Counted from the first letter of the stretch, positions 15,247-64,000 are shown. The stretch: DNA of 64,000 nucleotides from Caldora sp. SIO3E6 (GCA_010672185.1 JAAHHL010000032.1:5937-69936), one strand, 5' to 3'. The notes: generated from the letters alone by a model not told the origin. Numbers and translations are program-made.

Positions 15247-15248
15247 TT

Positions 15249-30294: not shown

Positions 30295-30395
30295 ACTGAT
30301 TTTTTATATCATAAGATGTCAAATCACCCATAATAAAAATTTCTCCGCGTCCGGTGCGTCTCCGTGTCTGGAGCGTTAATCCTAATTATGGTTAT

Positions 30396-36858: not shown

Positions 36859-39800
36859 ATGTTTGAGAAATTTACTGAAAAAGCAATAAAAATAGTTATG
36901 CTAGCTCACGAAGAAAGTATCTACCTGGGTCATCAAGAGATTGGTACAGGAGAGCTTCTCTTGGGCTTAATCAAGGAAGAAACTAGTCAAGCCTCTAAAG
37001 TTCTTAGAGAGGCAAAAGTCAATGTAGAAAATGCTCGTAGAAATGTAAAAAAAATAGTGGGTGGGAGTTCAGATTTTATCAGCAAAGGAAAAGAAATTTC
37101 TTTCAATGCCCACATTAGGAGAGTTATTCAATTTGCTTCGGAAGAAGCTGAGCAATTAAAACACAAAGAGATTACTCCAGAACATCTCCTATTAGGTTTA
37201 CTTAGGGAAGAAAAGTCAACTGCTGTTAGAGTTTTACAGAACTTGGGAGTTGAACCAATCCAGATACGTACTCGCATTCTGCCTGATGGAGCTAGCAATA
37301 TTCAAAATTACTTTACCTTAGTTCAAGAACTGCTCGATAATCCAGACAAAAGAACTGAAATTCTCAAGGTAAAGTCTGAACTGGTAAATAGCGAGTTTAC
37401 AGTTATCCTGACAGGATTAGTAGATTTGCTTATCAAGGGTAGCAATAAACAGGTAGCTAATTCTTTGCAGGATATTTCAGCCCAACTAGATCTGAAGGAG
37501 GAAAGTTCCCAGAGTAGTTACCAGTCTCGTGAAGTAGAAGCTGATTATCAAACCAGTCCTGATTTTTTCTATCAGCTTTTGCGGCTGATTTATGAGAGCA
37601 AAGCTGACTCTCAAGTAGTATATTCTTTCCTAGAGCAGAATTTAGATAAGCTTAACAAAAGCTTAATCAAACACTTGCAAAACTGGGCAAACAAAGCTCT
37701 ACATAACGTTAAAGAAGAACAAAGGCCAGAGATAGCTAAGCGAATTACTACTTTGTGTGCCCTAATCAAAGAGTTTCCCCAGGGAGATCCACTGATTAAA
37801 CAGGAAATAGCTATGGCTGGTTATGAGATTGTGGCTACTGTTTTAACTAAAAACAAAAAAAAGGAAGTTAAGGAAGTTCAACATAACCAAGAGACTAAAT
37901 CGGAGAAAGAGGAAAAAATAGTTCAAGTTGAAGAGGAGAAAACTGAGCTCACAAACCTATCTTTAACTGAACCAAAGCAACCTGAGAAAAAATCAGGGGT
38001 AGTAACGTTTAATAATTTTGCAGAAAAAGCAATAAAAGCGCTGGCAATAGCTCAAGAAGAAGCTCTGCGTCTAAAAAGCGAATATATAGATACAATTCAT
38101 ATTTTGCTGGGTTTAATCGGTGAAGGAACAGGACTTGCAGCTCGCATCCTGAGGGCAGAAGGTGTGAAGCTGAAAGATGCCAGGAATCAGGTTCGAGAAA
38201 CTATTGGTGGCGGTTCTAATTCCGCCCAGGAAATTTCCTCTTTTACACCAAGGACTAAAGAAGCTCTTAAAGGTTCTATAGAATTAGCTTCTCAATGGAA
38301 AAGTGACCAAGTTGACACAGAGCATATGCTGATTAGTTTACTTCAAGAAAATGATGAAGTTACAGCTCTAGTACTAGGAAAATTAGGTATTCAATTACAA
38401 GAATTAACCAATAAGTTGCTGGAAATGGCGAAAAAAAAAAGTAACCCTAATTTAGGTGAACAATCGTCCAATAACCAACCACGCAAAAAAGCAATTATTG
38501 TCAATGACAAGTCAGTTGATCTACAGTACGTAGACTTTTTTGTACAAGTTCTTGATGTAGTAGCAACTAATAGAGACCAACAATTTATCAACTCGCTATT
38601 ACAATCTAATTCTGACAAACTCGATTATAAATTTATTCAAACATTACAAATTTGCTCCCAGACAACCATCTCAGATCTACTTGATAATAAACCACTGAAC
38701 TACAAAGAGGAACTCCAAACATTTGCCAGGGATATTGGTGATTTGGCAATAGCAATTGCAGATATTTCCATCGAAGATAAAGAAATTAATTTAGAAATTG
38801 CGATCGCTGCCTTGGAAATTGTTATGACTATATTCACTCGTCAGGAATTTCCAGAGCAATGGGCAATTGCTCAATACCATCTAGCCAATGTTTATTTAGA
38901 AAGAACTAGTGGAGGCATAACTAATAACCTCAAAAAAGCTGTTGATGGTTATGGAAGGGCTTTACAAGTGCAACCAGACTGGAAAGAAGCTTGGTTACAT
39001 AAAGGTAGAACACTTTTGAAATTAGAGCGTTTTCAGGAAGCAATTACTAGTTTTGACCGAGCCTTGGCAGTACAGTTAGATACCTCTGATGCGTTTCATG
39101 ATGCCTGGATTTGGTATCTCAAAGGTATTGCACTAGGACATTTAAGAAATTATGAGGAGTCAATTGTTAGTTTTGACCGAGCTTTAGAAATAAGTCCTGA
39201 CTATTCTGGTGCTTGGTTTAACCGTGGTACTTCACTGTATTGCCAAGAGCGCTACGAAGATGCCCTTTATAGTTATGATAAAGCTATCGAGTTTCAACCT
39301 GAAAATGCTTCGATTCGGTTGAGCCGAGGTTTTGCACTAAGGAAACTGGGGAATTGGGTAGAGGCTGCTGCTAGCTTTGACCAAGCTTTGAGACTTGAAC
39401 CAAATAACTATAAAGCTCTGGAATGTAGAAATGATATTTTTCAAAGGATAGTAAGTAGTAGTAGTGCAGAGGAAATCGCAGCATTAGCGAAAAGATACAG
39501 AGGACAGGGAAATCAAAGCTTAGCTGAACAGTTGCAGGAAGAAGTAGAACACCAGGAAGGATTTGCAGAATTAGAGAGATTGGCTTGGGAATTAGCAAAT
39601 GAGGGTAAAGAACTAGCTGACAGCTTAAGGAATAATGAATCTCCACCAAATCACCCAACGTCAGCGTTACTAGGAGAAAAAGAAAGAAAGCAATGGCAAT
39701 TTTTCCAAGAAGCCATACTAAATAGGCAATGGACATTCTTAGAAGAAGCTATAGCAAAAATTACATATGATTACAACGAAAAAGAATATAGAAAGTTTTT

Positions 39801-42800
39801 GCAAGACAACTCAGAATTGTTAAAGGGAGAGCTTTTCAATGTATATGTGGCTGGGTTTATTTACGAAAAAGTCGAACAAAATAATTTACATCAAGCTCTA
39901 AAGTACGCCAATAGTGTTCTTGAGTTTTGCATGATTTTTCAAGATTATCAAGAACGTTTTTGGCCTGAGATTGGTCAAACAGTTGTTTATATATACCATG
40001 AACTTATATCATCACTGGGACTTAAATTAGGAATTTTTCAGTCTGGCGAAAATAAGGCATCTAATTGGTTCTCTTCCGAAGATGTTATAGCGAATATCTC
40101 CCAGATAAAATCTTATATTACTCAGAAGTCCTATATAGATAATCGACCCTTCGGTAAACCAAAGCCGAGAAAGGGCATTTCAGGAATGTTCGGTTCATTG
40201 CAAGCAATTTTTAATCCGATTCCTGTTCCTGATGATTATGGACTGATTCTGCTAGCAATCATCTTCACTAGACTTGGTCGTGCTTACCTTGAGCAAACTG
40301 AGCTTAAGTTATGGGAAAAGAATAGTAATGAAAAACTTGCGATTAAATGTTGCGAACTTTCATTGGCAGTATGGGAACGTACTGATTTACCAACTGAGTG
40401 CATTTACACTCATTATTGTCTGGCTAAAGCTTATAGTGAATTGAAGGAAGGAAATAGAGCCGAAAATATAGATAAGGCAATTTATCACTATGAAAAAACT
40501 CTAGAGAGTGTTACTCGCTCTGACAATCCTGATCAGTGGGCAACAACTCAAAATAACTTAGGTGTTGCTTACCGCCGACGTATTCGCGGCAATAAGTCTG
40601 AAAATATTAGGAAAGCAATTAGTTATTATCAAGAAGCTTTGAAGGTGAGAAAGCAAGATGTTCATCCCGCTCAATGGGCTAATACCCAAACTAATTTAGG
40701 TTTTGCTTATTTGTGTATTCGCGAAGATAAAGTCTCCAACATAAAGAAGGCAATTGACTGTTTTCATAAGTCATTGCAAGTTCTCACTCTAAAAAGTTTT
40801 CCTGAGTATTGGATAAGAGCTCAATTCAATCTAGGTAATGCGTACTTGGAACTATCTATCTTCCAAGGAAATGGTTACAAAGAGCAGTCCATTCATCATT
40901 ATGAAAATGCTTTACAAGCTTGTCAGAATTTGAGGTTACAAAAACAAGCTGCTGACATACAGATATGTCTAGGCAAAGCTTACTCCACGTACTTTGCTAC
41001 GGATGGTAAGGCTGAGTACGGGGAGTTAGCTATCAAATACTGTAACAGTTACTTGAGTGTTGTTAATCAAAAAGATAATCCATTAGGTTTTGTAAATGCC
41101 CAAACTACTTTTGGCAATATCTACAAACAATCCCAACAATATGACAAGGCATATAGTTCCTTGGCTACAGCGATTGAGACATTAGAATCTTTGCGTGGCG
41201 ATATTGCTCAAAAGTTGGCCACAGAAGAGGACAAACAAAAATTGTCAGAGCAACAGAGTTTACCCTATCTGGGCATGGTAGAGGTCTGCGTGGAATTGGC
41301 AAAAAAAGACCCCAACTATTATATCCAGGCAATTGAATATGCAGAGCGTAGTAAAGCCCGTAACTTAGTTGAACTTCTGGCTAACAAAGACTTCTACCCA
41401 GATTCAAAACTTTTCTCCAATCCCAATGAGTATCAAGAAATCTGCGAGTTGCTGGATAAATTACGACAAGAAATTCCTGCTAAACAGCGTCAATTAGAGA
41501 TGATAGTGGGTAATAGTGAGTTGCAAGAAAAAGAAGCCGAACGTGTTGAACAACTACGCCAAGAGTTGCAGGAGTCACGAGGAAGGCAAAATGAGCTTAT
41601 AGAGTTCATTGGTAGAGTAGATACTAAATTCAAGTTTACCCAACAAGTCGAACCTATCCCCTTCGAGCAAATCAAAACCTTACTGGGGGCAAATACGGCA
41701 ATCATTGAGTGGTATGTTACACAAGAAAGGTTTTTTGCCTTTATCATCACCTCCAAAGCAGAGACTCCCATCATTTGGGAATCTTCTATTGAGGACTGGA
41801 GGACTCTAGAGGAGTTAATTGCCGACTACCAAGACAGTTACTATCGCGAGAAGGAGACTTGGCAGAAAAGGCTAAATCACTACTTGAGGAGTGTTGCTCA
41901 AATTCTGCGCTTAGAGGAAATTTTAACCAGCTATCTACCCCCAGACTGTCAGCAACTTGTACTCATTCCCCATCGTTCTTTACATTTAATCCCACTCCAT
42001 GCCTTACCACTTGCTGATGGTAGTTGTCTGTTGGATAGATTTGCTCAGGGGGTACGCTATGCACCAAGCTGTCAACTACTGCAATTGAGCCAAACTCAGC
42101 AATATCATGAGTTTGCTAATCTCTTTGCTATCCAAGAACCGGAAAATAGTCAATCAAAGCTAGCATATACTAAGGTGGAAGTTGAAGCTATTGGCTCCTT
42201 ATTCCCTGCTGCTGAAGTTTTAGTCGGAGGTGGGGCCACAAAAGAGGCGACAAGTTCTGCTCTAACGGTTAGCAATTCCTTCAATTATGTCCATTTTTCT
42301 TGTCATGGAGGTTTTAACCCAGATTTTCCCCTTGAGTCAGCCTTACTTTTAGCTGAGGATAAAAATCTGACATTAGGAGAAATTTTTGCCCTGAATCTCA
42401 ATCAATGCCGCCTAGTTACCCTTTCCGCTTGTGAAACTGGCTTAACTAATATTCGTTCCCTCAGCGACGAGTACATTAGTTTACCCAGTGGCTTTCTTTA
42501 TGCCGGAAGTCCCAGTGTCGTTAGTAGCTTGTGGACGGTAAATGACTTATCCACTGCCTTCTTGATAATTAAGCTTTACCAAAATCTGCAAAGTCAAATG
42601 TCAGTAGCAGTAGCTCTTCAACAAGCTCAACTTTGGTTACGGGATGTTACCAAACAGGAATTGGCAACATGGAAAAACCAGTTAACTATACCTCCAGGAG
42701 TCAGAATAAGCTTAAATCGTCGATTACAGAAAATTCCTGATAATGCTCAACTATTTCGATCACCTTTTCATTGGGCAGGGTTTTGTGCGATAGGGCAGTA

Positions 42801-42801
42801 A
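36859..42801 (+). CDS. Clp_N(x2 pairs)-TPR-CHAT protein (caspase-like protease), array gene A
   Basis: 1980 aa. Two Clp N-terminal repeat domains (FTEKAIKIVMLAHEES...GTGELLLGL at aa 1-145; FAEKAIKALAIAQEEA...DTIHILLGL at aa ~382-525), each followed by a helical module. These are followed by TPRs, then CHAT with a His/Cys dyad (HFSCHG; TLSACETG). Confidence 0.85.
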   Translation: MFEKFTEKAIKIVMLAHEESIYLGHQEIGTGELLLGLIKEETSQASKVLREAKVNVENARRNVKKIVGGSSDFISKGKEISFNAHIRRVIQFASEEAEQLKHKEITPEHLLLGLLREEKSTAVRVLQNLGVEPIQIRTRILPDGASNIQNYFTLVQELLDNPDKRTEILKVKSELVNSEFTVILTGLVDLLIKGSNKQVANSLQDISAQLDLKEESSQSSYQSREVEADYQTSPDFFYQLLRLIYESKADSQVVYSFLEQNLDKLNKSLIKHLQNWANKALHNVKEEQRPEIAKRITTLCALIKEFPQGDPLIKQEIAMAGYEIVATVLTKNKKKEVKEVQHNQETKSEKEEKIVQVEEEKTELTNLSLTEPKQPEKKSGVVTFNNFAEKAIKALAIAQEEALRLKSEYIDTIHILLGLIGEGTGLAARILRAEGVKLKDARNQVRETIGGGSNSAQEISSFTPRTKEALKGSIELASQWKSDQVDTEHMLISLLQENDEVTALVLGKLGIQLQELTNKLLEMAKKKSNPNLGEQSSNNQPRKKAIIVNDKSVDLQYVDFFVQVLDVVATNRDQQFINSLLQSNSDKLDYKFIQTLQICSQTTISDLLDNKPLNYKEELQTFARDIGDLAIAIADISIEDKEINLEIAIAALEIVMTIFTRQEFPEQWAIAQYHLANVYLERTSGGITNNLKKAVDGYGRALQVQPDWKEAWLHKGRTLLKLERFQEAITSFDRALAVQLDTSDAFHDAWIWYLKGIALGHLRNYEESIVSFDRALEISPDYSGAWFNRGTSLYCQERYEDALYSYDKAIEFQPENASIRLSRGFALRKLGNWVEAAASFDQALRLEPNNYKALECRNDIFQRIVSSSSAEEIAALAKRYRGQGNQSLAEQLQEEVEHQEGFAELERLAWELANEGKELADSLRNNESPPNHPTSALLGEKERKQWQFFQEAILNRQWTFLEEAIAKITYDYNEKEYRKFLQDNSELLKGELFNVYVAGFIYEKVEQNNLHQALKYANSVLEFCMIFQDYQERFWPEIGQTVVYIYHELISSLGLKLGIFQSGENKASNWFSSEDVIANISQIKSYITQKSYIDNRPFGKPKPRKGISGMFGSLQAIFNPIPVPDDYGLILLAIIFTRLGRAYLEQTELKLWEKNSNEKLAIKCCELSLAVWERTDLPTECIYTHYCLAKAYSELKEGNRAENIDKAIYHYEKTLESVTRSDNPDQWATTQNNLGVAYRRRIRGNKSENIRKAISYYQEALKVRKQDVHPAQWANTQTNLGFAYLCIREDKVSNIKKAIDCFHKSLQVLTLKSFPEYWIRAQFNLGNAYLELSIFQGNGYKEQSIHHYENALQACQNLRLQKQAADIQICLGKAYSTYFATDGKAEYGELAIKYCNSYLSVVNQKDNPLGFVNAQTTFGNIYKQSQQYDKAYSSLATAIETLESLRGDIAQKLATEEDKQKLSEQQSLPYLGMVEVCVELAKKDPNYYIQAIEYAERSKARNLVELLANKDFYPDSKLFSNPNEYQEICELLDKLRQEIPAKQRQLEMIVGNSELQEKEAERVEQLRQELQESRGRQNELIEFIGRVDTKFKFTQQVEPIPFEQIKTLLGANTAIIEWYVTQERFFAFIITSKAETPIIWESSIEDWRTLEELIADYQDSYYREKETWQKRLNHYLRSVAQILRLEEILTSYLPPDCQQLVLIPHRSLHLIPLHALPLADGSCLLDRFAQGVRYAPSCQLLQLSQTQQYHEFANLFAIQEPENSQSKLAYTKVEVEAIGSLFPAAEVLVGGGATKEATSSALTVSNSFNYVHFSCHGGFNPDFPLESALLLAEDKNLTLGEIFALNLNQCRLVTLSACETGLTNIRSLSDEYISLPSGFLYAGSPSVVSSLWTVNDLSTAFLIIKLYQNLQSQMSVAVALQQAQLWLRDVTKQELATWKNQLTIPPGVRISLNRRLQKIPDNAQLFRSPFHWAGFCAIGQ

Positions 42802-42803
42802 TT

Positions 42804-45800
42804 ATGGATGAACAGCGCCGAGAAGCTTATTTGAATTTAATCAATACATTGCTCAGTTGTCATGGTGATGAGGAAATAAATCGAGTCTTAAACGCTAACC
42901 AGGATCTGATTGACTCAGGATTGTTACAGGTGATGGTACAGGTGGCAGAGATATTAGCTGAGAGGGGCGACGAAAGTGCTGCTAATTTTTTGATTCATCT
43001 TACCCATCAACTATCTAAAGCACTTGGATTGCTCTCATCAACCCCTACATCTACTTCACTATCAAATTCAGACCCTCAACAGAGCTTTCTGTTGGAGGTG
43101 TTGCGGGCAATTTACGATAGTGAGGGCGACCCAACAGTAGTGTATCCGCTATTACAGGCAAACCTGGATAAACTGGATGATAACTTTATCCAAGTTTTGC
43201 AAAGTTGGGCTATAGCTACCAAGCCAAAAGTTGAGCCAGAGCAAGTTTATGAATTTGCCATTATTCTTAGCACTTGCTGTAATCTTATCGCGCAGTTTTC
43301 ACTTGGTAATCGTGCTATCAATCTTGAAATTGCTATTGTTGGCTATGAGGTTGTTATGACAATCTTTACCCGCCAAATTTTCCCTCAAGAATGGGCAAAA
43401 ACTCAAAATAATTTAGGTCTTGTTTACTCTGATCGCATCCTTGGAGAAAGGGCAGAAAATTTGGAAGCAGCAATCAATTATTTTTTAGCTGCTTCAGATG
43501 TACATAGCCACCAATGCTATCCTGAAGAATGGGCTATGCTACAAAATAATCTGGGTAATGCTTACTGCAAGCGTATTTTGGGAAAAAGGTTAGAAAATAT
43601 CGAAGCAGCAATTCAATGCTATTTAGAAGCTTCAAAGGTGCTAATCCGCAACACTTATCCAGAACAATGGGCTATGACCCAAAACAATTTGGGAAACGCA
43701 TACAGTGATCGCATTTGTTGGAACAAGACAGAGAATATAGAAAGGGCGATTTGCTGTTTCTCAGAGGCATTGGAAGTATACACCCGCCAAACTTATCCAA
43801 AACAATGGGCTATGACCCAAAACAATTTGGGCAATGCCTACTACAATCGCATTCAGGGAAGTAAGGCAGAAAATTTGGAAGAAGCAATAAAATATTATCT
43901 AGAGGTATTGGAGGTATACAACCGCGAAGATTATCCAGAACAGTGGGCTATGCTACAAAACAATTTGGGCAATGCCTACTATGACCGTATTTCTGGAGAT
44001 AAAGCCAAAAATATCGAGATAGCAATCCACTATTTTTTAGCAGCTTTAGAGGTATACACCCAAGAAGATTTTCCACAAGATTGGGCAGATAGTCAAAACA
44101 ATTTGGGCAACGCATACAGTGAACGCATTTTTGGACAAAGGTCAGAGAATGTGGAAGCAGCAATCCGATGCTACTCAGAGGCATTGAAAATACGTAGCCC
44201 TCACAAGTTTCCACAAGATTGGGCAGACACTCAAACAAATATTGGCATTGCTTACTATTATCGTATTCAGGGAAGTAGGGCAGAAAATTTGGAAGCGGCA
44301 ATCAAGTGTTACTCGGATGTATTGAAATTACGCACCCATCAAACTTACCCAGAAGAGTGGGCAAAAATTCAAAATAACCTAGGAAATGCCTACGGTGAAA
44401 GAATTAAAGGGGATAAAGCAGAGAATTTAGATATAGCAATCGGCTGTTTCTCAAAAGCTTTGAAGGTATATACTTATGAAACCTTCCCACAAGACTGGGC
44501 GATGACCCAAAATAATCTAGGTGAGGTATATCGTGTACACATTGAAGAAAACACTGAAAATATAGAATCTGCAATTAAGTGTTACTTAGCTGCATTAGAA
44601 GTCTACACTTCCGAAGCCTTTCCCCAAGACTGGGGAGATATTCAAAACAATCTGGGCATTGCTTACTATTATCGTATTCAGGGAAGTAGGTCAGAAAATT
44701 TTAAAGCAGCAATCGACTATTTCTTAGCTTCTTTAAAAATACGCATCCCTGAAGCTTTCCCTCAAAAAAATGCCGAAACTCAATTTAACCTTGGTTATAC
44801 TTATCAAGAATATCAACAGTTTAACAATGCCTATACTACCTTAGCGGCTGCCATTAAGATGGTAGAATCTCTACGGAGTGAGAGCAACATAGTATCGGAA
44901 TCTAATAAAGAAGAAGTCAAACAAAAACTGGCTGAAAAATATAACCAAATCTATCAATGTATGGTGGAAGTATGCTTAGAACTGAAGAACTGTACTCAAG
45001 CCATAAAATACGTCGAACGCAGCAAAACCCGCAACTTAGTAGAACTTATCCTAACCCGCGATCGCCACACGATTTTCCCCGCAGAAGTAGTTGTTCAACT
45101 AGATCGACTCCGAGATGAAATCGCTGGCGGTCAATACGAACTCCAAAATGCTACGGCGGAAGACCCTACAGCTTTAGCTCAACATCTCCAACAACTGCGA
45201 CAGCAGCGCAACGAATTACAAGACCAATACCTGCCGATTGGTTCTGGTTTTCAGTTTGAGCCATTCCGGTCAAAAGTGGGCGATCACAGGGCAATTGTTG
45301 AGTTTTATGTTACGACCGATAAGCTACTGGTTTTCATTATTACCAAGCAATCCCCACAACCGATTGTTTTATCCCCCGATTTGGTAGACCTGAAAAAATT
45401 AGAGACTTGGGCTAGTAGCTATTTGAAAGCTTATAGTAATAAAAAAGACCACTGGCAGCGCCGCCTCACTACCCGTTTAAATCTGCTGGCCAAAATTCTG
45501 CACTTTGATGAAATTATTGAGCAAATTCCAACAGAGTGCGACCAGTTAACCTTAATTCCCCATCGCTTTCTCCATTTACTGCCACTTCATGCTTTACCCC
45601 TAGCAGGGAACTCCAGTCTGTTTGAGAGATTTCCCCAAGGAGTTAGCTATGCCCCTAGCTGTCAACTTCTCCAACTGGCCCAAACTAGAGAACGTCCCGA
45701 ATTTACTCATCTATTTGCCGTTCAGAATCCAAGTAATTCAGGACAACCATTAAGCTATGCTGATGTAGAAGTTGAAGCGATTCAAAACTACTTTGACACA

Positions 45801-50773: not shown

Positions 50774-50775
50774 CT

Positions 50776-53769: not shown

Positions 53770-53780
53770 TAGAGCAACTT

Positions 53781-53828
53781 TTTAACTCACCCTTTCACTG
53801 GGCACTGTTCTGTGTCATTGGTCAATGA
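53781..53828 (+). pseudogene. Relic of the last 15 codons plus stop of a class-1 CHAT gene (FNSPFHWALFCVIGQ*)
   Basis: Hand translation of the D-E spacer. Compare the paralog C-termini SPFHWAGFCAIGQ and SPFYWAAFCAIGQ. The relic stop overlaps the E start (CAATGATG). Confidence 0.75.
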
Positions 53829-56686: not shown

Positions 56687-56702
56687 TTAACTAAAGTAAC
56701 TT

Positions 56703-59387
56703 ATGTCATCAAAAATCTCTCCTTCATTTGTTAATTTTTTGCAATTGATCTTGCAGACAGTCCGTGAAAGTGATGCAGAGCCAGAGGCTTTATACTCAAT
56801 ACTAGAGAAACACTTGGAGCAACTAGAGAATAACTTTCCTCAGAAATTTAAAAATTGGGCAAAGGAGAGGTTAGCAGAGTTAGAACCAGAAGAACGCCGT
56901 AACATAGCCAAAGATATTGGCAATTTATGTATTTTAATACGCAGTTACCCTTTTCCTTCTCAAGCCAATAATATAGAAATAGCTATTGCTGGTTATGAAG
57001 TGATCAGTACTGTTTTGGATCGTGAATGTTCTCCAGAAAATTGGGCAACAAATCAAAACAATCTAGGGGTTGCCTATTGTGCTCGTATTCTGGGAGATAA
57101 GGCCCATAATTTAGAACAGGCAATAGCCTATTTCAAGAAAGCTTTACAAGTTCGCACTCGCAAGGATTTACCTTCGGATTGGGCGGCAACTCAAAGCAAC
57201 CTGGGCAATGCTTACTACAGCCGCATTGTAGGCAAAAAGGAAGAAAACTTAGAACAGGCAATTAGATGTCACAAACGAGCATTAGGTATTCATACTTACG
57301 ACGCTTTTCCAGAAAACTGGGCAAGTGTTCAGTACAGTTTGGGAAATGCCTACAGCGATCGCCTTTCAGGAGCAAGAGACAAGAATCTGGAGAGGGCAAT
57401 TCAGCATTATGAAAATGCTTTACAGGTATACACCCGTACTGCTTACCCAGAACAGTGGGCTGGAATTCAAGATAATTTGGGTGGTGTCTATCACAAACGC
57501 CTGCTAGGAGAAAAAGCAGAAAATCTGGAGAAAGCGATCGCCCATCACAAAAATGCTTTATTGGTTTACACTTATGAATCAGATCCAGAGCAATGGGCTA
57601 AGACTCAAAGTAATCTAGGAGTTGCTTATGGTAAGCGCATTTTGGGTAAAAAAGTAGAAAATCTGAGGAAAGAGAGTAAATGCTATAAAAAAGCTTTACT
57701 AGTGTACACCAGAGAGTCATTTCCCTTAGATCATGCTATAACCCTATACAATCTCGGTCTTACTTACAAAAGTTCTCAAAAATTTGATTCTGCTTACAAT
57801 ACCTTTGCTGCTGCCATTGAAACAGTTGAATCTCTGCGCAGTTTGATTGCCTTTGAAGATGACACGGCTTTAACAACTGCTATTAACACTTTAGAGTCAG
57901 ACCCAGTTAAGATTCTCTCGGAAGAAGAAGCTGGGCAAGAAGTCAAACGCAAACTTGCTGAAGAATGGAACTTACTTTACCAAGCTATGGTGGAAGTATG
58001 TTTAGAATTAGGCTACCCTGATCGAGCTATTGAATATGTAGAGCGCAGCAAAACTCGTAATTTAATTGAGTTCCTTGCTCAGAAAGACAGCTATTCAGAT
58101 TTTGAGTTTATTTGCTTTCCCCAAATCTTAGATATCCTACCTGATGGCTACAGTAGCATCATTGAGTGGTACATTACTCCTGAGACCTTTGTTGTCTTTA
58201 TTATCAGCAGCCAAACACGGAATCCTATTGTTTGGCAACCTCCTTCAGAGGAAAGGGAAGGGACTTTACGAGCTTTAATTGATTGGGGTAATAGATACCT
58301 TGACGACTACGAAGATGATGGAGAAGGCGGAGAACGGTGGGAAAAACAGTTAGATGACTCCCTCCACCACCTTGCTCTAATTCTCCATTTTGATGAAATA
58401 CTCTCCCTCCTTCCCAAAAGCTGTAATCAACTTATTCTGATTCCTCATTGGTTCTTACATCTGTTACCCCTCCACGCTTTACCTCTAGCCACTCGGAAAA
58501 ACCAATGTCTTTTAGATCGATTCAGTCGAGGTGTGCGCTATGCTCCTAGCTGTCAGCTATTGCATATGACCAAAAATCAGCCACGCCACAGACCAACATC
58601 AGATATGTTCCTTCCTCACCTTTTTGCTATGCAAAATCCCACGGAAGATTTGTCCTATGCTGATTTGGAAGTCCAAGCTATCTGCCGCTATTTTCAGAAA
58701 ACTAAAGTTCTCGCTAAGTCAGAAGGGACAAAAGCAGCCCTTTATCAGGAGTTATCTAACTATAACTTAGCTTCCGGCAACTACCTTCATTTTTCCTGCC
58801 ACGCATTCTTTAGCCCTCATTTTCCCCTCAAGAGTTCTGCTTTGTTTTTGGCAGGTTGTTACGTTCCTACCGCAGAAGAGTTAGCTTCTCAATTGTATCT
58901 AATATTCGACGAAGATAGTAAGACAAAAATTGCTCTTAATCAATGTCTAACTCTCAGAGAAATCTATACTCTCAAACTGCCTAAATGTTATTTAATTACT
59001 CTCTCTGCTTGTGAAACAGGTATAACAGACTTCTACAACACAAGTGATGAATACGTCGGCATTGGTGGCGGTTTTCTCTATGCAGGTACTCCCAATGTAG
59101 TAAATAGTCTTTGGGTAGTGAACGACTTATCCACGGCCTTTTTGATGATTCGGTTTTATCAGAATCTGCAAAACTTCCAGTCAGTCGCAGTTGCTCTCAA
59201 TCAAGCTCAACTCTGGCTCCGAGATATCACTAAAAAAGAACTGGAAACATGGATTGAGGAAAATCAGTTACCATTGAAACCAGCAGTTAGGATGGGTCTG
59301 CGTCGTCGTCTTTATCAGTTAGAGGATGATGCTAAACCCTTTAAAGACCCGTTTCACTGGGCAGCTTTTTGTGCTATTGGTCAGTAA
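56703..59387 (+). CDS. TPR-CHAT protein, array gene F (class 1)
   Basis: 894 aa. About six repeats, and CHAT (HFSCHAFF; LSACETG). Confidence 0.85.
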   Translation: MSSKISPSFVNFLQLILQTVRESDAEPEALYSILEKHLEQLENNFPQKFKNWAKERLAELEPEERRNIAKDIGNLCILIRSYPFPSQANNIEIAIAGYEVISTVLDRECSPENWATNQNNLGVAYCARILGDKAHNLEQAIAYFKKALQVRTRKDLPSDWAATQSNLGNAYYSRIVGKKEENLEQAIRCHKRALGIHTYDAFPENWASVQYSLGNAYSDRLSGARDKNLERAIQHYENALQVYTRTAYPEQWAGIQDNLGGVYHKRLLGEKAENLEKAIAHHKNALLVYTYESDPEQWAKTQSNLGVAYGKRILGKKVENLRKESKCYKKALLVYTRESFPLDHAITLYNLGLTYKSSQKFDSAYNTFAAAIETVESLRSLIAFEDDTALTTAINTLESDPVKILSEEEAGQEVKRKLAEEWNLLYQAMVEVCLELGYPDRAIEYVERSKTRNLIEFLAQKDSYSDFEFICFPQILDILPDGYSSIIEWYITPETFVVFIISSQTRNPIVWQPPSEEREGTLRALIDWGNRYLDDYEDDGEGGERWEKQLDDSLHHLALILHFDEILSLLPKSCNQLILIPHWFLHLLPLHALPLATRKNQCLLDRFSRGVRYAPSCQLLHMTKNQPRHRPTSDMFLPHLFAMQNPTEDLSYADLEVQAICRYFQKTKVLAKSEGTKAALYQELSNYNLASGNYLHFSCHAFFSPHFPLKSSALFLAGCYVPTAEELASQLYLIFDEDSKTKIALNQCLTLREIYTLKLPKCYLITLSACETGITDFYNTSDEYVGIGGGFLYAGTPNVVNSLWVVNDLSTAFLMIRFYQNLQNFQSVAVALNQAQLWLRDITKKELETWIEENQLPLKPAVRMGLRRRLYQLEDDAKPFKDPFHWAAFCAIGQ

Positions 59388-62300
59388 TGAAAGAAAAACG
59401 CCAAGCCTATCTGGAGCTAATTGAAGCCCTCATCAACTGTTCTAGCGGTGAGGAAGAGTCGATTTTGCAAGCCAACTCAAGCCTAATAGATTCTGGTTTG
59501 GTGCAGGTAATACTCCAATTGAGCACAAAGCTAGCAGAGCAGGGAGATCAACAGGTAGCGGACTGGTTGGAAAATATTGCTTCCTACCTTGCTAGTACCA
59601 TAGGCGAATCCTCAGCTCAAAACCCCCCTGAGGCAGAAGCAGAAAAACTCTTCCAACAAGGGATTCAGGACTTTCAGGCAGGTCAATTTCAAGATGCCTC
59701 ACACTGCTGGCAACAAGCTTTAACACTTTATCGCCAGCTGGGAAATCGCCAGGGAGAAGCTCAATGTCTGGGCAATCTGGGTAATATTTTTTACCAACTT
59801 CAGGATTACGAGCAAGCCATTAAATACCACAAACAAGACCTGAGTGTCGCACGGGAGATAGGAGATGGGGAGGGAGAAGCCTATTCTCTAAACAACTTGG
59901 GTAGAACCTGCGAATCCCAATGGAAATACCAACAGGCTATTGAATATTACGAGCAATCCCTACTGACTGCACAAAAAATAGGCGATCGCCAAGTAGAAGC
60001 GACTGCTCTGAATAATTTAGGTAACACTTACAACTTCCAGGGAAAATACCAGGAAGCTATTAAGAGTTATAAGCGGTTCTTAGTAATTGCACGAGAAATA
60101 GATAATCGTCGTTGGGAAACCATTGCCCTGAATAATTTAGGTAATGCTCATGATTCCCTAGGACATTACCAGCAAGCGATAAAAATGTATGAGGAATCCC
60201 TAGCTATTGCACGAAAAATAAGCGATCGCGAAGGAGAAGCCAATTCCCTAAACAATTTAGGCAGTGTTTACTTTTCTCAAGGGCAGTACCAACAGGCGAT
60301 CAACAAGCATGAGGAGTCATTGGCGATCAAACGGGAGATAGGCGATAGCCGTGGTGAAACCAAATGCTTGGGAAATTTGGGTTTAACTTACCACTGTTTA
60401 GGACAATACCAACAGGCCATTGATTACCACGAGCAGAGTCTAACCACCGCACAAGAAATAGGCGATCGCCTTGGTGAAGCAACTGTTTTTGGAAATTTGG
60501 GCTTAACTTATCGTTCTTTGGGTCAATATCAGCAGTCGATTAAGAATTACAAACGGCAATTGCTGATCACACGAGAAATAGGTGATCGCCTTGGCGAGGC
60601 AACTGTTTTAGGAAATCTAGGCTTGACTCACTACTTTCGAGAAAAATATCAGGAGGCAATTAACAAGTATCAAGAATCCTTAGCTATTGCGCAGAAAATA
60701 GGTTATCGTGCGGGAGAAGCTGCTTGCTTAGGAAATTTGGGCAATGCCTACTATTCAAGAGGTCAATGTCAGCAAGCGATTGAGTATCACCAACAATCCT
60801 TAATGATTTCTCAGGAAATAGGTGATCGTCGAGGAGAAGCTAGTACTCTAGGTCATCTGGGCATGGTTTACTATGCCCAAAAACAATATCAGCAAGCCAT
60901 CGATTATCATAAGCAGCAGTTAAATATTGCCAGGGATATAGGTTATCAATTGGGAGAGGGGGCTTCTCTAAACAATTTAGGACTGGCTTTTCTGGAATCT
61001 GGTCGGTTAGCAGAAGCCGAGGAAAACCTACGCCAGGGAATTAAAGTTTGGGAATCGATCCGAACCTCTCTAGGAAGTAATGACACCAATAAGGTGTCAA
61101 TTTTTGATACACAAACCGCTGCTTATCAACTGTTGCAAAAAGTCCTAGTTACCCAAAATAAACCTCTAGCTGCTCTAGAAATTGCCGAACGAGGAAGGGC
61201 AAGAGCTTTTGTGGAGTTATTAGAGGAGCAATTAGCTAAAAAAAAGCTGCCAAATCCTGAGCAATTAACTGTTTTGTCTATTAGCAAGATTCGAGAAATA
61301 GCCCAAGCACAAAAAACTACTTTGGTGGAATATTCGGTAATTTTTGCTGAAGAACTGTACATTTGGGTTATTTGCCCTGATGGTGAAATTTACTTTCGCT
61401 CAGTTGAACTCGAATCTTTGGAGAAGCAGCCAAGCTCATCTTCATTACTATCTGAGCTAGTTCTCCAAGCCCGTAAATCTCTTGGTATCGCGGAAAAACT
61501 GCAAGATATTGTAACTGGTAGTAGCATTGAGGCTAGACCAAATTTCAACAGCATCTCTTCACCGTTGAAGCAACTATATCAATACCTAATTGCCCCAATT
61601 AGTGACCTCCTGCCCAGTAACTCTACAGCCACCGTAGTTTTTATTCCCCAAAAGGTTTTATTCCTGCTTCCTTTCTCAGCGCTTCAAGATAGCAAGGGCA
61701 AATTCTTAATAGAGCAACATACTATCATAACCGTTCCCTCCATACAGGTTTTGGCATTAACCAGTAAGCCAAGAAGCAAAGTAGTAAAAGAAAAATTCCT
61801 TGCTACATTGATCGTTGGCAATCCCAAAATGCCAACTATACCTCTCTCCCAACCTCCTCAAACCTTAGCCAGTCTACCAGGGGCAGAAGTAGAAGCAAAA
61901 GCGATCGCTTCCTTACTACAAACTAAAGCTTTATTAGGTGAGAGAGCTACCAAGTCAAAGGTTGTCGAACAACTGCCCAAGGCTAAGTTGATTCATCTGG
62001 CTACTCATGGGTTATTAGGAGATATCAAGCAACTCGGTGTGCCGGGAGCCATCGCTTTAGCTCCCAGTGAGAATGATGGGTTTCTGACCTCTGGTGAAAT
62101 TTTAGAACTGGAACTATGTGCCGAGCTAGTTGTACTGAGTGCCTGTAGTACAGGACAGGGAAGAATTACCGGAGATGGTATAATTGGCTTATCTCGATCT
62201 TTTATTGCGGCTGGAGTAGATAGTTTAATAGTTTCCCTTTGGTCAGTAAATGACCAATCTACTGCTTTCTTGATGGTTAAGTTTTACCAGATTCTTCAGC

Positions 62301-62515
62301 AGGGAATAACTGCTACCATTGCTCTTAACCAAGCTCAGCGCTGGTTACTGGGGGTAACCAAAAAAGAACTTTTAGTCTGGGTTGAAGCCAATCAACAATT
62401 TTTAGCTCCCGCTTTGAGAATGAATTTGCGTCATCGATTGCATAAACTGGAAGATAGTGTCAAGCCGTTTCAAAGTCCTCGGCACTGGGCAGCTTTTTGT
62501 GGGATCGGGCAATGA
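59387..62515 (+). CDS. TPR-CHAT protein, array gene G (class 2)
   Basis: TAATG overlap with F. N-domain (AYLELIEALINCSSGEE), about ten 40-aa TPRs, and CHAT (HLATHG; LSACSTGQG). Confidence 0.85.
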   Translation: MKEKRQAYLELIEALINCSSGEEESILQANSSLIDSGLVQVILQLSTKLAEQGDQQVADWLENIASYLASTIGESSAQNPPEAEAEKLFQQGIQDFQAGQFQDASHCWQQALTLYRQLGNRQGEAQCLGNLGNIFYQLQDYEQAIKYHKQDLSVAREIGDGEGEAYSLNNLGRTCESQWKYQQAIEYYEQSLLTAQKIGDRQVEATALNNLGNTYNFQGKYQEAIKSYKRFLVIAREIDNRRWETIALNNLGNAHDSLGHYQQAIKMYEESLAIARKISDREGEANSLNNLGSVYFSQGQYQQAINKHEESLAIKREIGDSRGETKCLGNLGLTYHCLGQYQQAIDYHEQSLTTAQEIGDRLGEATVFGNLGLTYRSLGQYQQSIKNYKRQLLITREIGDRLGEATVLGNLGLTHYFREKYQEAINKYQESLAIAQKIGYRAGEAACLGNLGNAYYSRGQCQQAIEYHQQSLMISQEIGDRRGEASTLGHLGMVYYAQKQYQQAIDYHKQQLNIARDIGYQLGEGASLNNLGLAFLESGRLAEAEENLRQGIKVWESIRTSLGSNDTNKVSIFDTQTAAYQLLQKVLVTQNKPLAALEIAERGRARAFVELLEEQLAKKKLPNPEQLTVLSISKIREIAQAQKTTLVEYSVIFAEELYIWVICPDGEIYFRSVELESLEKQPSSSSLLSELVLQARKSLGIAEKLQDIVTGSSIEARPNFNSISSPLKQLYQYLIAPISDLLPSNSTATVVFIPQKVLFLLPFSALQDSKGKFLIEQHTIITVPSIQVLALTSKPRSKVVKEKFLATLIVGNPKMPTIPLSQPPQTLASLPGAEVEAKAIASLLQTKALLGERATKSKVVEQLPKAKLIHLATHGLLGDIKQLGVPGAIALAPSENDGFLTSGEILELELCAELVVLSACSTGQGRITGDGIIGLSRSFIAAGVDSLIVSLWSVNDQSTAFLMVKFYQILQQGITATIALNQAQRWLLGVTKKELLVWVEANQQFLAPALRMNLRHRLHKLEDSVKPFQSPRHWAAFCGIGQ

Positions 62516-62569
62516 CTAGTTCAGTATATCCCGAACCATAACAAAGAGATAGTGGTAAGGAATTATCAG

Positions 62570-64000
62570 CATCTATTCCAGAGGATTGACACATTGATTA
62601 GTTGTCCCAATGGAGAGTAATGAAAGAACAAATAAATTAACAATATTTTAATCTTATCCAAGCAATGTATCTCAATTTTTTACTTGAAATCTTGCAAGCA
62701 ACCAATGATAGTAATGGAGAGCCAACGGTAATTTATTCAATATTACAAGCAAACTTAAACAAGCTGGATGATAACTTTGCTGCTGTATTGCGCTCTTGGG
62801 CTACTACTAACTTACCTCCTCGGTCTGGTTTACCGAGATGCTCAACAGTTTGAAAATGCCTACACTACCTTTACTAATACAATAAATATTGTAGACTCAC
62901 TGCGTAGCAAAATTGTCTCTGGTGATGCAGCGAGGCAGAAGCTCGCAGATGAATACAATAGAGTCTATCAAAACCTAATCGAAATATGTCTGGAACTCAA
63001 TCAATACACTGAAGCCATTGAATATATCGAACGCAGTAAAGCACGGAGTCTTGTCGAACTTTTAGCCACAAAAAAAAATTACCCAAAACGCGATTACTAC
63101 TCTACTCAAAATGATTATCAAAAGGCTTGCACCCAACTCGATCAACTGCGAACAAAAATTACTACTAAAGAGCGGGAATTAGAAATTTTAACTAGAAATA
63201 AAGAATCAGAAGAGAGAAATTATGACTATGTGGTACAACTCCAGCAAGGATTATCTGAGCTCCAACAGCAATTGAATCAGATATTTGGGGAAATTCATAA
63301 AATAGACCCTAGCTTTAAATTAAACCAACAAATTGACCCTATTTCCTTCAGCCAGATTCAAACTCTTATAGATTCGCGTACTTGTCTTGTGATCTTGCAT
63401 ATTACCGATCAGCAAATTATAGCCTTTATCATTACCCGCAATAATCGAGCTCCCATTGTCCGGAAATATTCTGGTAAAGACCGAGATAGAACTATGAATC
63501 GGGCATTCGCATATTTGCGACTTTACTACCGAAAACGCAGTAATTGGTGGAGAAATCAGCTAGTATCTCGCTTAAAAGACCTAGCAAAAATTCTCCATAT
63601 TGAAGAAATTTTATCCCACCTCCCGACAGATTGCGATCGTTTGATTCTTATCCCTCACAGGGTATTACATTTACTGCCGCTTCACGCCCTCCCTATTTAC
63701 TCTGATGAAACTGGCAGTTTTTGCTTGTTAGATAAATTTCCCAGAGGGGTGCAATATGTCCCTAGCTGTCAGATCTTGCAACTTACTCAAAACCAACAAC
63801 GTCCTGACCTTCACAAACTATTCGCCATCCAAAATCCTACCAAGGATCTAAGTTATGCCAACCTAGAAGTTGAAAAGATCTGCTCATCTTTTTCCTCCAC
63901 TCAAGTGTTAGTCCAAGAAGCGGCAACTAAAGCTGCCCTCAATACAGCTCGAAACTTGAAGGAGGCTCACTGTATTCATTTTTCCTGTCATGGCTTATTT
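62570..64000 (+). pseudogene. Decayed eighth CHAT gene (H); runs off the window
   Basis: Three pieces:
- 62570-62620: N-domain relic (HLFQRIDTLISCPNGE*).
- 62665-62853: helical-module ORF.
- From ~62819: the linker/CHAT part (LGLVYRDAQQFENAY ... IPHRVLHLLPLHALP ... HFSCHGLF) continues in another frame, with the whole TPR array missing. An in-frame ATG exists at 62768. Confidence 0.7.

Follow-up and report, generated by a model that had tools for sequence, protein, structure and literature searches.

Among the described systems closest to the locus studied here are the iSTAND (MoxR-vWA-inactive STAND) ternary systems with bDLD1/EAD3 adaptors. Two papers present them as predicted conflict systems that are enriched in multicellular bacteria, with caspase-like and repeat domains among the effectors of iSTAND systems (PMC7159879, PMC8195603), and in one of the two the iSTAND systems are described as enriched in multicellular cyanobacteria (Kaur, Burroughs, Iyer, Aravind, eLife 2020, PMC7159879). 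Protease-adjacent latent effectors form another such group and are unleashed through site-specific cleavage (bioRxiv 10.1101/2025.11.14.688446). No experiments on iSTAND systems, or on the TPR-CHAT family described below, were found in the literature searched.

Here we compare these systems with an array of TPR-CHAT genes from Symploca/Caldora sp. SIO3E6. The window is the whole 64,000-nt stretch of DNA that was analysed. Its host is an Oscillatoriales MAG and not a member of the Nostocales, the order in which a preliminary description of the sequence had proposed a synteny survey.

Layout of the array

Positions 36859-64000 of the window carry, on the + strand, seven intact CHAT genes (894-1980 aa) and one frameshifted remnant. 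The ORF layout thereby upholds the earlier view of 27 kb of one strand filled by seven intact copies and one decayed copy. The features of the array and of its upstream border are as follows.

35837..36796, + strand: tyrosine recombinase (Pfam Phage_integrase and Phage_int_SAM_1; PHROG integrase)
36859-42801, + strand: gene A, 1980 aa; Clp_N pair, NTD1, NTD2, Clp_N pair, NTD2, classical TPRs, about four 46-aa repeats, coiled coil and CHAT, from N to C terminus; HFSCHG at aa 1812 and LSACETG at aa 1855; Pfam CHAT 4.5e-56, Clp_N 1e-44 in four stretches, TPR_1 9e-34
42804-46469, + strand: gene B, 1221 aa, class 1, identical to NES17923.1; NTD1, NTD2, 10-11 46-aa repeats, coiled coil, CHAT
46469-50773, + strand: gene C, 1434 aa, class 1, fourteen 46-aa repeats, identical to NES17924.1
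50776-53769, + strand: gene D, 997 aa, class 2; NTD1, classical 40-aa TPRs, CHAT (HLATHG/LSACSTG); Pfam CHAT 5e-67, TPR_12 3e-59
53770..53828, + strand: D/E deletion scar, ~17 codons (EQLFNSPFHWALFCVIGQ*) left from the 3' end of a lost CHAT gene
53825/53828-56686, + strand: gene E, 953/952 aa, class 1, the second ATG at 53828 being the start in NES17926.1; NTD2, 5-7 repeats, coiled coil, CHAT
56703-59387, + strand: gene F, 894 aa, class 1; NTD2, 3-6 repeats, coiled coil, CHAT (HFSCHA/LSACETG)
59387-62515, + strand: gene G, 1042 aa, class 2, identical to NES17928.1
~62556-64000, + strand: H, decayed class-1 copy that runs past the window end (three-frame translation)

The four Clp_N repeats of gene A, arranged as two pairs, and its block of classical TPRs are absent from the preliminary description.

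Four of the seven gene boundaries lie at -1 to +2 nt. These are the minimal junctions already described and confirmed in the sequence: 2-nt gaps at A/B and C/D, TGATG at B/C, where the ATG of C overlaps the stop of B, and TAATG at F/G, where the ATG of G overlaps the stop of F. The D/E and E/F spacers measure 55 and 16 nt. Such spacing suggests that the genes may be translationally coupled and co-transcribed across the array. Promoter-like and terminator-like sites in the array are as numerous as expected from shuffled sequence, and none falls within any spacer.

In the D/E scar, the TGA overlaps the second ATG of gene E, and the encoded peptide fits the family C-terminal consensus PFxSPFYWAAFCAIGQ. 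Copy H retains an NTD1 remnant with stops and a partial NTD2, and its entire repeat array has been deleted out of frame. Its coiled-coil/CHAT module is still open, reads HFSCHG and scores 327 bits against the class-1 C-terminal (CHAT1) HMM. Past the window end lie five annotated proteins (NES17929-17933) and a ninth, intact CHAT gene (NES17934.1).

Two classes of sensor repeats

The proteins fall into two classes, one with 46-aa WAxTQNNLG repeats (A, B, C, E, F and H) and one with classical TPRs (D and G), the same two subfamilies that had been proposed before. Tandem Repeats Finder recovered the 138-nt (46-aa) unit in 13.7 copies at 80 % matches in C, 4.7 copies in B and 4.9 in E. By motif, HMM and layout, the 46-aa repeats number ~4 in A, 10-11 in B, 14 in C, 5-7 in E and 3-6 in F, with none in H. 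Repeat number thus does vary as widely among the class-1 paralogs as previously noted, from 0 (H) to 14 (C). Of the two N-terminal helical modules, neither of which had a Pfam match, NTD1 is present in A, B, C, D and G and as a remnant in H, and NTD2 occurs in A (twice), B, C, E, F and H.

The gene order had been read as a duplicated 1-1-2 cassette. Identities of the C-terminal module agree with this for B-E (68 %) and D-G (59 %), but not for C-F (52 %), which stays within the class-1 background of 49-54 %. Microcoleus, Floridaenema and Planktothrix also show the orders 1,1,2 and 1,1,1,2, in which class 2 comes last, and this supports the proposal that class-1 and class-2 members belong together.

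The CHAT domain and its fold

All seven intact proteins matched Pfam CHAT PF12770, with E-values of 3e-47 to 5e-67, well outside chance expectation, and scores of 162-227 bits against a cutoff of 24. The catalytic dyad is retained in every intact copy (7/7), in line with the earlier reading: HFSCHG/LSACETG in A, B, C and E, HFSCHA/LSACETG in F, and HLATHG/LSACSTG in D and G. The catalytic His and Cys are invariant across a 39-sequence alignment. By these sequence criteria, the array proteins are predicted CHAT-domain caspase-fold proteases (clan CD).

An AF2 model of E (mean pLDDT 80) has helices at 9-544, forming a solenoid, followed by a caspase-like alpha/beta domain. Csx29 chains were the top PDB matches to this model in Foldseek, with E-values of 4e-12 to 3e-9 over 830-940 aligned columns (best chain 8eey_B, E 3.6e-12) and Csx29 TM scores of 0.35-0.45. 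They were followed by the TPR domains of LGN/OGT, separase and DdvA. Csx29 was also the sole sequence relative in the PDB (E ~7e-4, near the catalytic Cys). The model of E thus predicts a TPR-CHAT architecture with a Csx29-like overall fold, in agreement with the original assignment as caspase-fold TPR-CHAT proteases.

The adjoining phage-like element

Positions 1-36796 of the window represent a prophage or phage-plasmid, with capsid, portal, terminase, DnaB, ParAB, RecD2 and RuvC genes identified by Pfam and PHROG. The recombinase at its end is the integrase of this element and forms the context of the array, outside it; for an identity as XerC or XerD, NCBIfam scores were far under cutoff. 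A 44.6-kb IMG/VR contig (L070) is 96.9 % identical to the window over 36158-36794. The homology stops exactly at the integrase stop codon, from where the contig runs on into tail genes, and the array starts 62 nt past that stop. The earlier placing of the array next to a tyrosine recombinase does not amount to a functional link.

The locus does not qualify as an integron, shufflon or other recombinase-driven cassette array: the near-zero spacers (-1 to +2 nt) are too short to hold attC-like sites between the genes, and the recombinase is shared (97 %) with a phage contig that lacks the CHAT array. GC content is 0.37-0.45 in the array (mean ~0.41) versus 0.43-0.48 in the phage-like part at 1-36000 (mean ~0.45), with overlapping ranges. 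A Planktothrix locus (L040) has a 59 %-identical integrase just upstream of a 1,1,1,2 array, and there the integrase element interrupts a CHAT gene.

Related arrays and their downstream genes

The TPR-CHAT family was confined to cyanobacteria, mostly filamentous, in the searches made, and protein E has matches in >6,000 90 %-identity clusters at E <= 1e-30. We collected 68 related loci, all cyanobacterial, with same-strand CHAT runs of up to 4-5 genes, some of which end in class 2. Clp_N-CHAT relatives of A occur in Trichodesmium and a Nostocaceae MAG (L053, L054).

A ~115-aa protein (p114) and/or a conserved ~390-aa module follows the last CHAT gene in 41 of 68 runs, counting runs from other cyanobacteria with at least 1 kb downstream and a partner within 800 nt. 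The ~390-aa module consists of an alpha/beta domain and three long helices, has no Pfam family and gave only a weak CorA-like match in a fold search (E 8e-3). Its ends vary among TM helices, bDLD1 with Trypsin_2, bDLD1 with Metallophos, and PNP_UDP_1. TM-like segments are found in 30 of 49 members, and bDLD1 occurs on the partner proteins of L001, L016, L053 and L082.

In Nostoc (L001), the CHAT array is followed by a module-bDLD1-trypsin protein, a 363-aa protein, a bDLD1-iSTAND protein, an AAA_5/MoxR-type ATPase and vWA_CoxE, past which a further TPR-repeat protein begins and is truncated by the locus end, leaving its N-terminal part. L082 encodes a 94 % ortholog of G and then a bDLD1-trypsin protein, a 360-aa protein, bDLD1-iSTAND and vWA; here the iSTAND and vWA genes overlap and an AAA+ gene was not called. 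Genes for iSTAND and vWA are also present in L083. Judged by its sequences, this downstream set represents the iSTAND ternary conflict system that Kaur et al. 2020 predicted. The expectation that the locus would match no described system is thus contradicted by relatives that carry a bDLD1-effector, bDLD1-iSTAND, MoxR-type AAA+ and vWA.

Homology of L082 to the window ends at 62519, and the window carries H where L082 has bDLD1-trypsin, iSTAND and vWA. Neither p114 nor the conserved module was found in the 64-kb window, and in iterative HMM searches started from the L082 proteins none of the window ORFs matched iSTAND, vWA or the 360-aa protein. The eight window proteins had no Pfam match to bDLD1 at E <= 0.01. 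The 100,279-bp source contig was not among the matches of the conserved-module search, which suggests that the array may do without that partner or use one encoded at another site.

Transfer, decay and selection

The CHAT part of gene B is 82.6 % identical at the DNA level to a Pseudanabaena plasmid gene, and the plasmid copies are flanked by IS elements. Such identity between distant orders points to horizontal transfer. CHAT copy number ranges from 1 to >8 across genomes.

Comparison of G with its 94 % ortholog gave an overall dN/dS of 0.22, indicating purifying selection. The value was 0.19 for the CHAT part and 0.41 for the TPR part, the latter on a small base of 12 nonsynonymous and 8 synonymous changes. 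This single close pair gives no sign of diversifying selection on the sensor, for which a dN/dS comparison had been proposed. G is itself mosaic, with dS of 0.03 versus 0.36. Copy H, the D/E scar and the dS contrast in G show that duplication, deletion and recombination continue to reshape the array.

Proposed function and alternative explanations

We suggest, with a probability of roughly 0.55, that the array is a battery of several paralogous sensor-proteases belonging to a system for immunity or programmed death. The earlier idea of a multi-sensor battery for conflict or cell death survives as the best reading, without a functional link to the recombinase and without the claim of no described counterpart that accompanied it. 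The TPR-CHAT family would form the protease arm of predicted immunity/programmed-death systems, on a protein plan in which a helical module at the N terminus leads into a TPR-like solenoid whose length varies, then a coiled coil and finally the caspase-fold CHAT protease. The solenoids may sense an invader protein or a damage signal, and binding of such a trigger would free the CHAT protease, by analogy with target binding for Csx29 in Craspase. The freed protease could then cut a partner pro-effector and/or neighbouring paralogs. In relatives, the putative partner would be the ~390-aa module ending in TM helices or in bDLD1 with trypsin, metallophosphoesterase or nucleoside phosphorylase. In multi-gene arrays, predicted bDLD1-iSTAND and vWA proteins come after this partner, with a MoxR-type AAA+ between them in L001, and bDLD1 may couple effector to core through homotypic contact. 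Paralogs with differing repeat numbers would widen the range of triggers.

A more elaborate proposal, tentative as a whole, is that the TPR-CHAT proteins, the ~115-aa protein and the pro-effector form a novel, CRISPR-independent 'Craspase-like' module. Taken jointly, its parts would be a pro-effector with a new constant fold (alpha/beta plus three-helix stalk); killing ends that can be swapped (a CorA-like TM pair, bDLD1-trypsin, phosphoesterase or phosphorylase); tandem arrays acting as multi-sensor batteries, whose many paralogous proteases converge on one effector or ternary switch, or act as a caspase-like cascade; and a phage-integrase family that prefers inserting into arrays, of which the window and L040 would be two cases.

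The position of the array, 62 nt past the integrase stop and where homology to the related phage contig ends, would also fit cargo of the phage or phage-plasmid, that is, a superinfection-exclusion, anti-defence or host-killing module that moves with the element. The ParA/ParB genes suggest a plasmid-like lifestyle that tolerates cargo, plasmid-borne family members exist, and in Planktothrix the related integrase likewise lies just upstream of an array. However, that integrase element breaks a CHAT gene and does not carry the array, most related arrays are held by ordinary chromosomal contigs, and class-1 CHAT homologs were not found in IMG/VR or in 50,697 GenBank phages. The mean GC content of the phage-like part is also higher (ranges overlapping), and a further >27 kb would be too much DNA for the capsid of a phage of ~45 kb, so we consider cargo unlikely. 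A housekeeping or developmental role in the manner of HetF or separase, in division, filament differentiation or protein quality control and not in immunity, has a precedent in HetF, a CHAT protease reportedly required for heterocyst differentiation and division in Anabaena, and separase is among the fold matches to E. The usual ligands of Clp_N domains are Clp-chaperone substrates or adaptors, and the Clp_N domains of A suggest protein quality control; G is under purifying selection. This role is nevertheless very unlikely given a copy number of 1 to >8 between genomes, pseudogenes and deletion scars within the array, plasmid and IS-adjacent copies, horizontal transfer at 82.6 % DNA identity across distant orders, and tight linkage to a Death-like-domain effector and iSTAND/MoxR/vWA genes.

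The array might also be an orphaned, decaying remnant of a non-functional system whose effector and ternary-core partners were lost by the D/E and G/H deletions. The scar of a deleted gene, the pseudogene H, which stands where the ortholog of G precedes bDLD1-trypsin, iSTAND and vWA, and the failure to detect the partner on the source contig in the conserved-module search are consistent with such a loss. Yet seven ORFs of 894-1980 aa remain open with intact dyads, dN/dS is 0.22 for G, and NES17929-17933 and the intact CHAT gene NES17934.1 lie beyond the window. Partners of the bDLD1 type may, moreover, be encoded elsewhere in a genome, as one account indicates (PMC7159879). We therefore see little chance that the array is a mere relic, and if it were an orphaned paralog cluster it would be of modest interest.

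TPR-CHAT genes rank with the most expanded gene families of filamentous cyanobacteria, and with those least understood. The analysis connects these genes with a conserved pro-effector partner and with the predicted MoxR-vWA-iSTAND/Death-like-domain network, opening a testable route, through protease substrate and trigger, into caspase-like cell death and immunity of multicellular bacteria. It also depicts arrays of this type as recombination-remodelled, horizontally moving and open to prophage insertion.

Comparison with known systems

PADLOC-DB v2, a search suggested in the preliminary description and run here, gave no system-specific match, only the generic 'TPR' model (D and G) and marginal matches. 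Pfam and PHROG scans and a repeat scan of the array region agree with the earlier statement that no gasdermin or CRISPR component is present. No Cas domains were found in the Pfam- or PHROG-scanned ORFs of 1-36.8 kb, which are phage, plasmid and recombination genes, and no CRISPR-like repeat in the array region. Gasdermin, Pepco, EACC1, MBL and hydrolase had no match in the window proteins or in the partners of relatives. A bacterial gasdermin-protease operon was rejected, with neither a gasdermin family match nor a gasdermin match in the partner fold search.

The array proteins resemble Csx29 of the type III-E CRISPR 'Craspase' in combining an N-terminal TPR solenoid with a C-terminal CHAT caspase-fold protease, and the conserved-module partner of relatives parallels the neighbouring-substrate logic of Csx30. 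They differ in their greater size, in carrying 46-aa repeats, additional modules at the N terminus and a long coiled coil, and in forming several tandem paralogs. Their NCBIfam scores of 40-95 bits, versus a cutoff of 300, do not make them Csx29 equivalogs. Cas7-11/gRAMP, Csx30, Csx31 and RpoE are absent, as is a CRISPR array from the scanned TPR-CHAT region, and the Csx29 score and lack of Cas genes place the array outside type III-E Craspase. HetF, separase and DdvA share the CHAT/caspase fold with helical-repeat N-terminal regions, but are single-copy with cell-cycle or anti-sigma roles and lack the tandem paralogy, plasmid/IS context and Death-like-domain neighbours.

Like protease-adjacent latent effectors, the locus type encodes a sensor-fused caspase-like protease beside a putative dormant effector that cleavage would unleash, and the partner in relatives has polymorphic, toxic-looking ends (TM, trypsin, phosphoesterase). 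The likeness to iSTAND systems lies in relatives of the array genes directly upstream of bDLD1-effector, bDLD1-iSTAND and vWA_CoxE, with an AAA_5/MoxR-type gene in L001. MoxR AAA+, vWA and inactive STAND occur together in L001 but not in the window, where the HMM searches covered iSTAND and vWA, and the eight window proteins had no match to the bDLD1/EAD3 adaptor that these systems carry on effector and core component. Arrays of 5-9 CHAT genes and the ~390-aa module are not among the features met in the portions of the Kaur papers drawn on here (eLife 2020, 2021). The TPR-CHAT array is thus most likely a new variant of conflict systems that have already been predicted computationally.

A tandem array of TPR-CHAT genes

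The array of caspase-like CHAT protease genes proposed in the preliminary description is real. Seven long ORFs (A-G) and one remnant (H) fill the + strand from position 36859 to the end of the window.

Genes of the TPR-CHAT array (coordinates, strand, gene, product)
36859-42801, +, A, 1980 aa, class 1
42804-46469, +, B, 1221 aa, class 1
46469-50773, +, C, 1434 aa, class 1
50776-53769, +, D, 997 aa, class 2
53825-56686, +, E, 953 aa (952 aa from the second ATG), class 1
56703-59387, +, F, 894 aa, class 1
59387-62515, +, G, 1042 aa, class 2
~62556-64000 (window end), +, H, class-1 remnant

The junctions are as tight as had been claimed, with 2-nt gaps at A/B and C/D, TGATG at B/C and TAATG at F/G, while the E/F and D/E spacers measure 16 and 55 nt. 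A Pfam CHAT domain was found in all seven intact proteins (E 3e-47 to 5e-67), and all seven carry both motifs of the His/Cys dyad, as first described. The proteins have the protease fold and dyad, with an overall architecture that, in the model of E, resembles Csx29. Profiles from PADLOC and NCBIfam yielded no system-level match for the array.

The two classes differ in their repeats. Class 1 (A, B, C, E, F and H) is built from a 46-aa unit with the consensus FPxxWAxTQNNLGxAYxxRIxGxKAENLExAI, which at the DNA level is a 138-nt tandem repeat present in 13.7 copies in C. Class 2 (D and G) contains classical LGN-like TPRs. Gene A also encodes Clp_N repeats, arranged as two pairs, and a stretch of classical TPRs (Pfam). 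Two N-terminal helical modules, neither with a Pfam family, precede the repeats: NTD1 is common to both classes and NTD2 is restricted to class 1, with two copies in A.

Duplication and loss within the array

The earlier proposal of a duplicated 1-1-2 cassette holds in part: in the C-terminal modules, identity is 68 % for the pair B and E and 59 % for the pair D and G, whereas C and F share 52 %, which lies within the class-1 background of 49-54 %. At the DNA level the best identity among the window paralogs is just 76 %, over 400 nt. The duplications are therefore old, and recent gene conversion between these paralogs was rejected on the same grounds. Whether the class order is conserved had also been raised, and an order with class 2 last does recur in relatives, as 1,1,2 in Microcoleus (L038) and 1,1,1,2 in Floridaenema (L016) and Planktothrix (L040). 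This order is therefore a family trait and not an accident of the Caldora sp. SIO3E6 genome.

Genes have also decayed in the array. H has stop codons in NTD1, and an out-of-frame deletion took out its repeat array. The D/E spacer consists of the final ~17 codons of a vanished CHAT gene, whose stop overlaps the second ATG of E; at least one gene was therefore lost there. The array also extends beyond the window. The window comes from a MAG contig of Symploca/Caldora sp. SIO3E6, 100,279 bp long, on which B, C, E and G are annotated as NES17923, NES17924, NES17926 and NES17928. By accession order, G is followed by five annotated proteins (NES17929-17933) and then by an intact class-1 CHAT protein, NES17934.1 (P0279, 1043 aa), so that the array has at least nine CHAT genes.

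A phage-like element ends at the array

Window positions 1-36796 form a phage-like element. From 1 to ~21 kb it encodes a capsid, a virion protein, a portal, TerL, a methyltransferase fusion, DnaB, a replication initiator and a tail fibre. Its right part holds ParB, ParA, a split RecD2-like helicase, RuvC and then the tyrosine recombinase that precedes gene A. The ParAB genes suggest a phage-plasmid lifestyle.

Features of the phage-like element (coordinates, strand where assigned, product)
2535-3467, major capsid
5254-7242, -, portal (Phage_portal_3)
7782-9221, large terminase TerL
15726-17069, DnaB
17074-18321, replication initiator
20313-21101, tail fibre
29158-31214, ParB/ParA
35171-35665, RuvC

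The portal bears a C-terminal inorganic pyrophosphatase-like InPase domain (E 5e-18). The interval from the terminase to the methyltransferase holds a gene (9797-10831, -) for a fusion of a GNAT acetyltransferase with DUF6610 (E 1e-37). A single ORF of 1464 aa (10858-15252, -) joins a C5-cytosine methyltransferase (Dcm), a DpdA-like region of the DNA transglycosylase family and a D12-class N6-adenine methyltransferase (Dam), and would be an unusual three-in-one DNA-modification protein. The RecD2-like helicase (32633-34886, +), which has relatives on Nostoc and Fischerella plasmids, lies in two overlapping ORFs of different frames (32633-33235 and 33135-34886); either the gene is frameshifted or a pseudogene, or the MAG sequence is in error here.

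Two metagenomes in IMG/VR yielded contigs that match the phage part of the window, mostly at 94-100 % identity and in some stretches at 81-85 %. A 44.6-kb viral contig in IMG/VR shares 96.9 % identity with the final 637 nt of the recombinase gene; exactly at the stop codon the two part, and the contig runs on into genes for tape measure, tube, sheath and morphogenesis. This identifies the recombinase as the integrase of a prophage or phage-plasmid and puts the start of the CHAT array at the element boundary. The recombinase, first described as the neighbour of the array, is shared with the viral contig, and its adjacency is incidental or reflects prophage insertion. An integron-like or shufflon-like role was likewise rejected, because there are no sites between the genes and the recombinase belongs to the phage.

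The array could be cargo of this phage, given how closely it abuts the integrase, or host DNA flanking the integrated element. We disfavour cargo, as searches of IMG/VR and of GenBank phages returned no class-1 CHAT homolog and more than 27 kb of extra DNA is too much for a ~45-kb genome. GC content also averages lower in the array (0.37-0.45) than in the phage part (0.43-0.48), with overlapping ranges. On these three grounds we favour flanking host DNA. Neither the H protein nor a 40-nt exact pattern had a match in IMG/VR, and a metagenome scan with H returned only a 40 % relative. A second case was found in Planktothrix paucivesiculata PCC 9631 (L040 3658-5283), where a 59 %-identical integrase also lies upstream of a CHAT array. 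Behind this integrase lie a perfect inverted repeat pair of 25 nt and, beyond it, the 3'-terminal ~300 nt of a CHAT gene that has been truncated; here an integrase-bearing element has interrupted one CHAT gene of a 1,1,1,2 array. Together, the window and Planktothrix hint that this integrase family lands in CHAT arrays, which is a lead rather than a result.

Related loci and a conserved partner

A scan of one genome per species found 68 related loci, which we mapped with HMMs made from the window's own modules. All are cyanobacterial, mostly from filamentous species. Most class-1 genes in these loci stand singly, while same-strand runs of two to five CHAT genes occur in Nostoc, Sphaerospermopsis, Floridaenema, Planktothrix, Microcoleus, Elainella and on Pseudanabaena plasmids. 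One Pseudanabaena plasmid gene (L069) has 82.6 % DNA identity to window gene B, evidence that points to horizontal transfer across distant orders. This locus (113-154 kb of plasmid ABRG53a from Pseudanabaena sp. ABRG5-3) lies on a mobilizable, 215-kb plasmid with at least seven CHAT/TPR genes, among them a four-gene tandem CHAT array flanked by IS4, ISL3 and IS982 transposases.

A conserved ~480-aa gene upstream of arrays was considered and rejected, since the three candidates (L049, L040 and L069) are mutually unrelated. The L069 candidate pointed instead to a partner that usually lies downstream. Two neighbours of CHAT runs are conserved: p114, a ~115-aa helical protein, and a protein that is constant over its first ~390 residues (the constant module). 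Of 68 runs with 1 kb or more of sequence downstream, 41 have one or both of these genes 3' of the final CHAT gene, on its strand and no more than 800 nt away.

Examples of the p114/constant-module pair downstream of class-1 CHAT genes (~45 further loci)
L069 12476-14262
L050 11555-13526
L013 18149-19911

The constant module is annotated merely as 'hypothetical protein', and no Pfam family was found for it, for p114 or for a 360-aa protein encoded at some of these loci. Its structural model has pLDDT >90 over most of residues 11-385 and combines an alpha/beta domain with three long helices; a fold search returned weak CorA-like matches only, again a lead and not a result. The C-terminal ends are polymorphic. 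One or two TM-like segments occur in 30 of 49 members and bDLD1 in 13, and some proteins extend into Trypsin_2, a calcineurin-like phosphoesterase (metallophosphoesterase) or a nucleoside phosphorylase. Interchangeable toxic ends on a constant module are the hallmark of conflict-system effectors. The most promising leads are this p114/constant-module partner and the association of the integrase with arrays.

Within the 64-kb window itself, we found no ORFs for p114, the constant module, bDLD1, inactive STAND (iSTAND) or vWA, and noticed no MoxR-type gene. No constant-module match is listed on the 100,279-bp source contig either, so the partner may be absent there.

Selection and recombination

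Positive selection on the TPR surface, for which the preliminary description had suggested a dN/dS comparison, was not seen in the one suitable close pair, G and its 94 % ortholog, which differ by few substitutions. For G, this pair gives a dN/dS of 0.22, indicating purifying selection. G is a mosaic relative to this ortholog (59387-62515 versus L082 7300-10446), with a dS of 0.03 over the 5' NTD1/TPR region and of 0.36 over the CHAT region. Recombination is therefore reshaping these genes. The 3' end of the gene that precedes the G-like gene in L082 is closest to B (84 %), not F, and with the mosaic this points to recombination among paralogs or strains.

A proposed conflict-system model and its relation to iSTAND systems

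A conflict-system reading of the array is the best available. In such a model, the solenoids would sense a trigger and thereby release the CHAT protease, which could cleave the adjacent pro-effector and perhaps paralogs too. NTD1, which both classes share, is a candidate for homotypic contact between paralogs. bDLD1 would couple the effector to iSTAND, MoxR and vWA would set the threshold, and the outcome would be cell death or dormancy. Cleavage-activated effectors beside sensor-proteases have recent experimental precedent (bioRxiv 10.1101/2025.11.14.688446).

Several relatives stand beside such genes. On L082, the G ortholog (P0002) is followed by a constant module-bDLD1-trypsin protein, the 360-aa protein, bDLD1-iSTAND, vWA_CoxE, a transposase and a further CHAT gene. 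The DNA match with the window stops 4 nt past the stop of G, and H occupies that place in the window. In Nostoc sp. P6236, a five-gene class-1 array precedes module-bDLD1-trypsin, a 363-aa protein, bDLD1-iSTAND, an AAA_5/MoxR-type ATPase, vWA_CoxE and the start of another TPR-repeat protein, cut by the locus end. In Trichodesmium IMS101, a vWA gene lies upstream of an A-like Clp_N-CHAT protein, and genes for module-bDLD1, p114 and bDLD1-metacaspase come after it.

The earlier view that the locus matches no described system thus stands for what the window itself shows but not for the family. The loci of the relatives agree with a ternary system of MoxR, vWA and iSTAND, with bDLD1/EAD3 adaptors, that Kaur et al. 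predicted (PMC7159879; PMC8195603); these authors also place caspase-like and repeat domains among its effectors and show that such systems are enriched in multicellular bacteria. Our literature searches found no experimental work on iSTAND ternary systems or on this CHAT family. We rate the array family as a variant that belongs with these already known, computationally predicted conflict systems.
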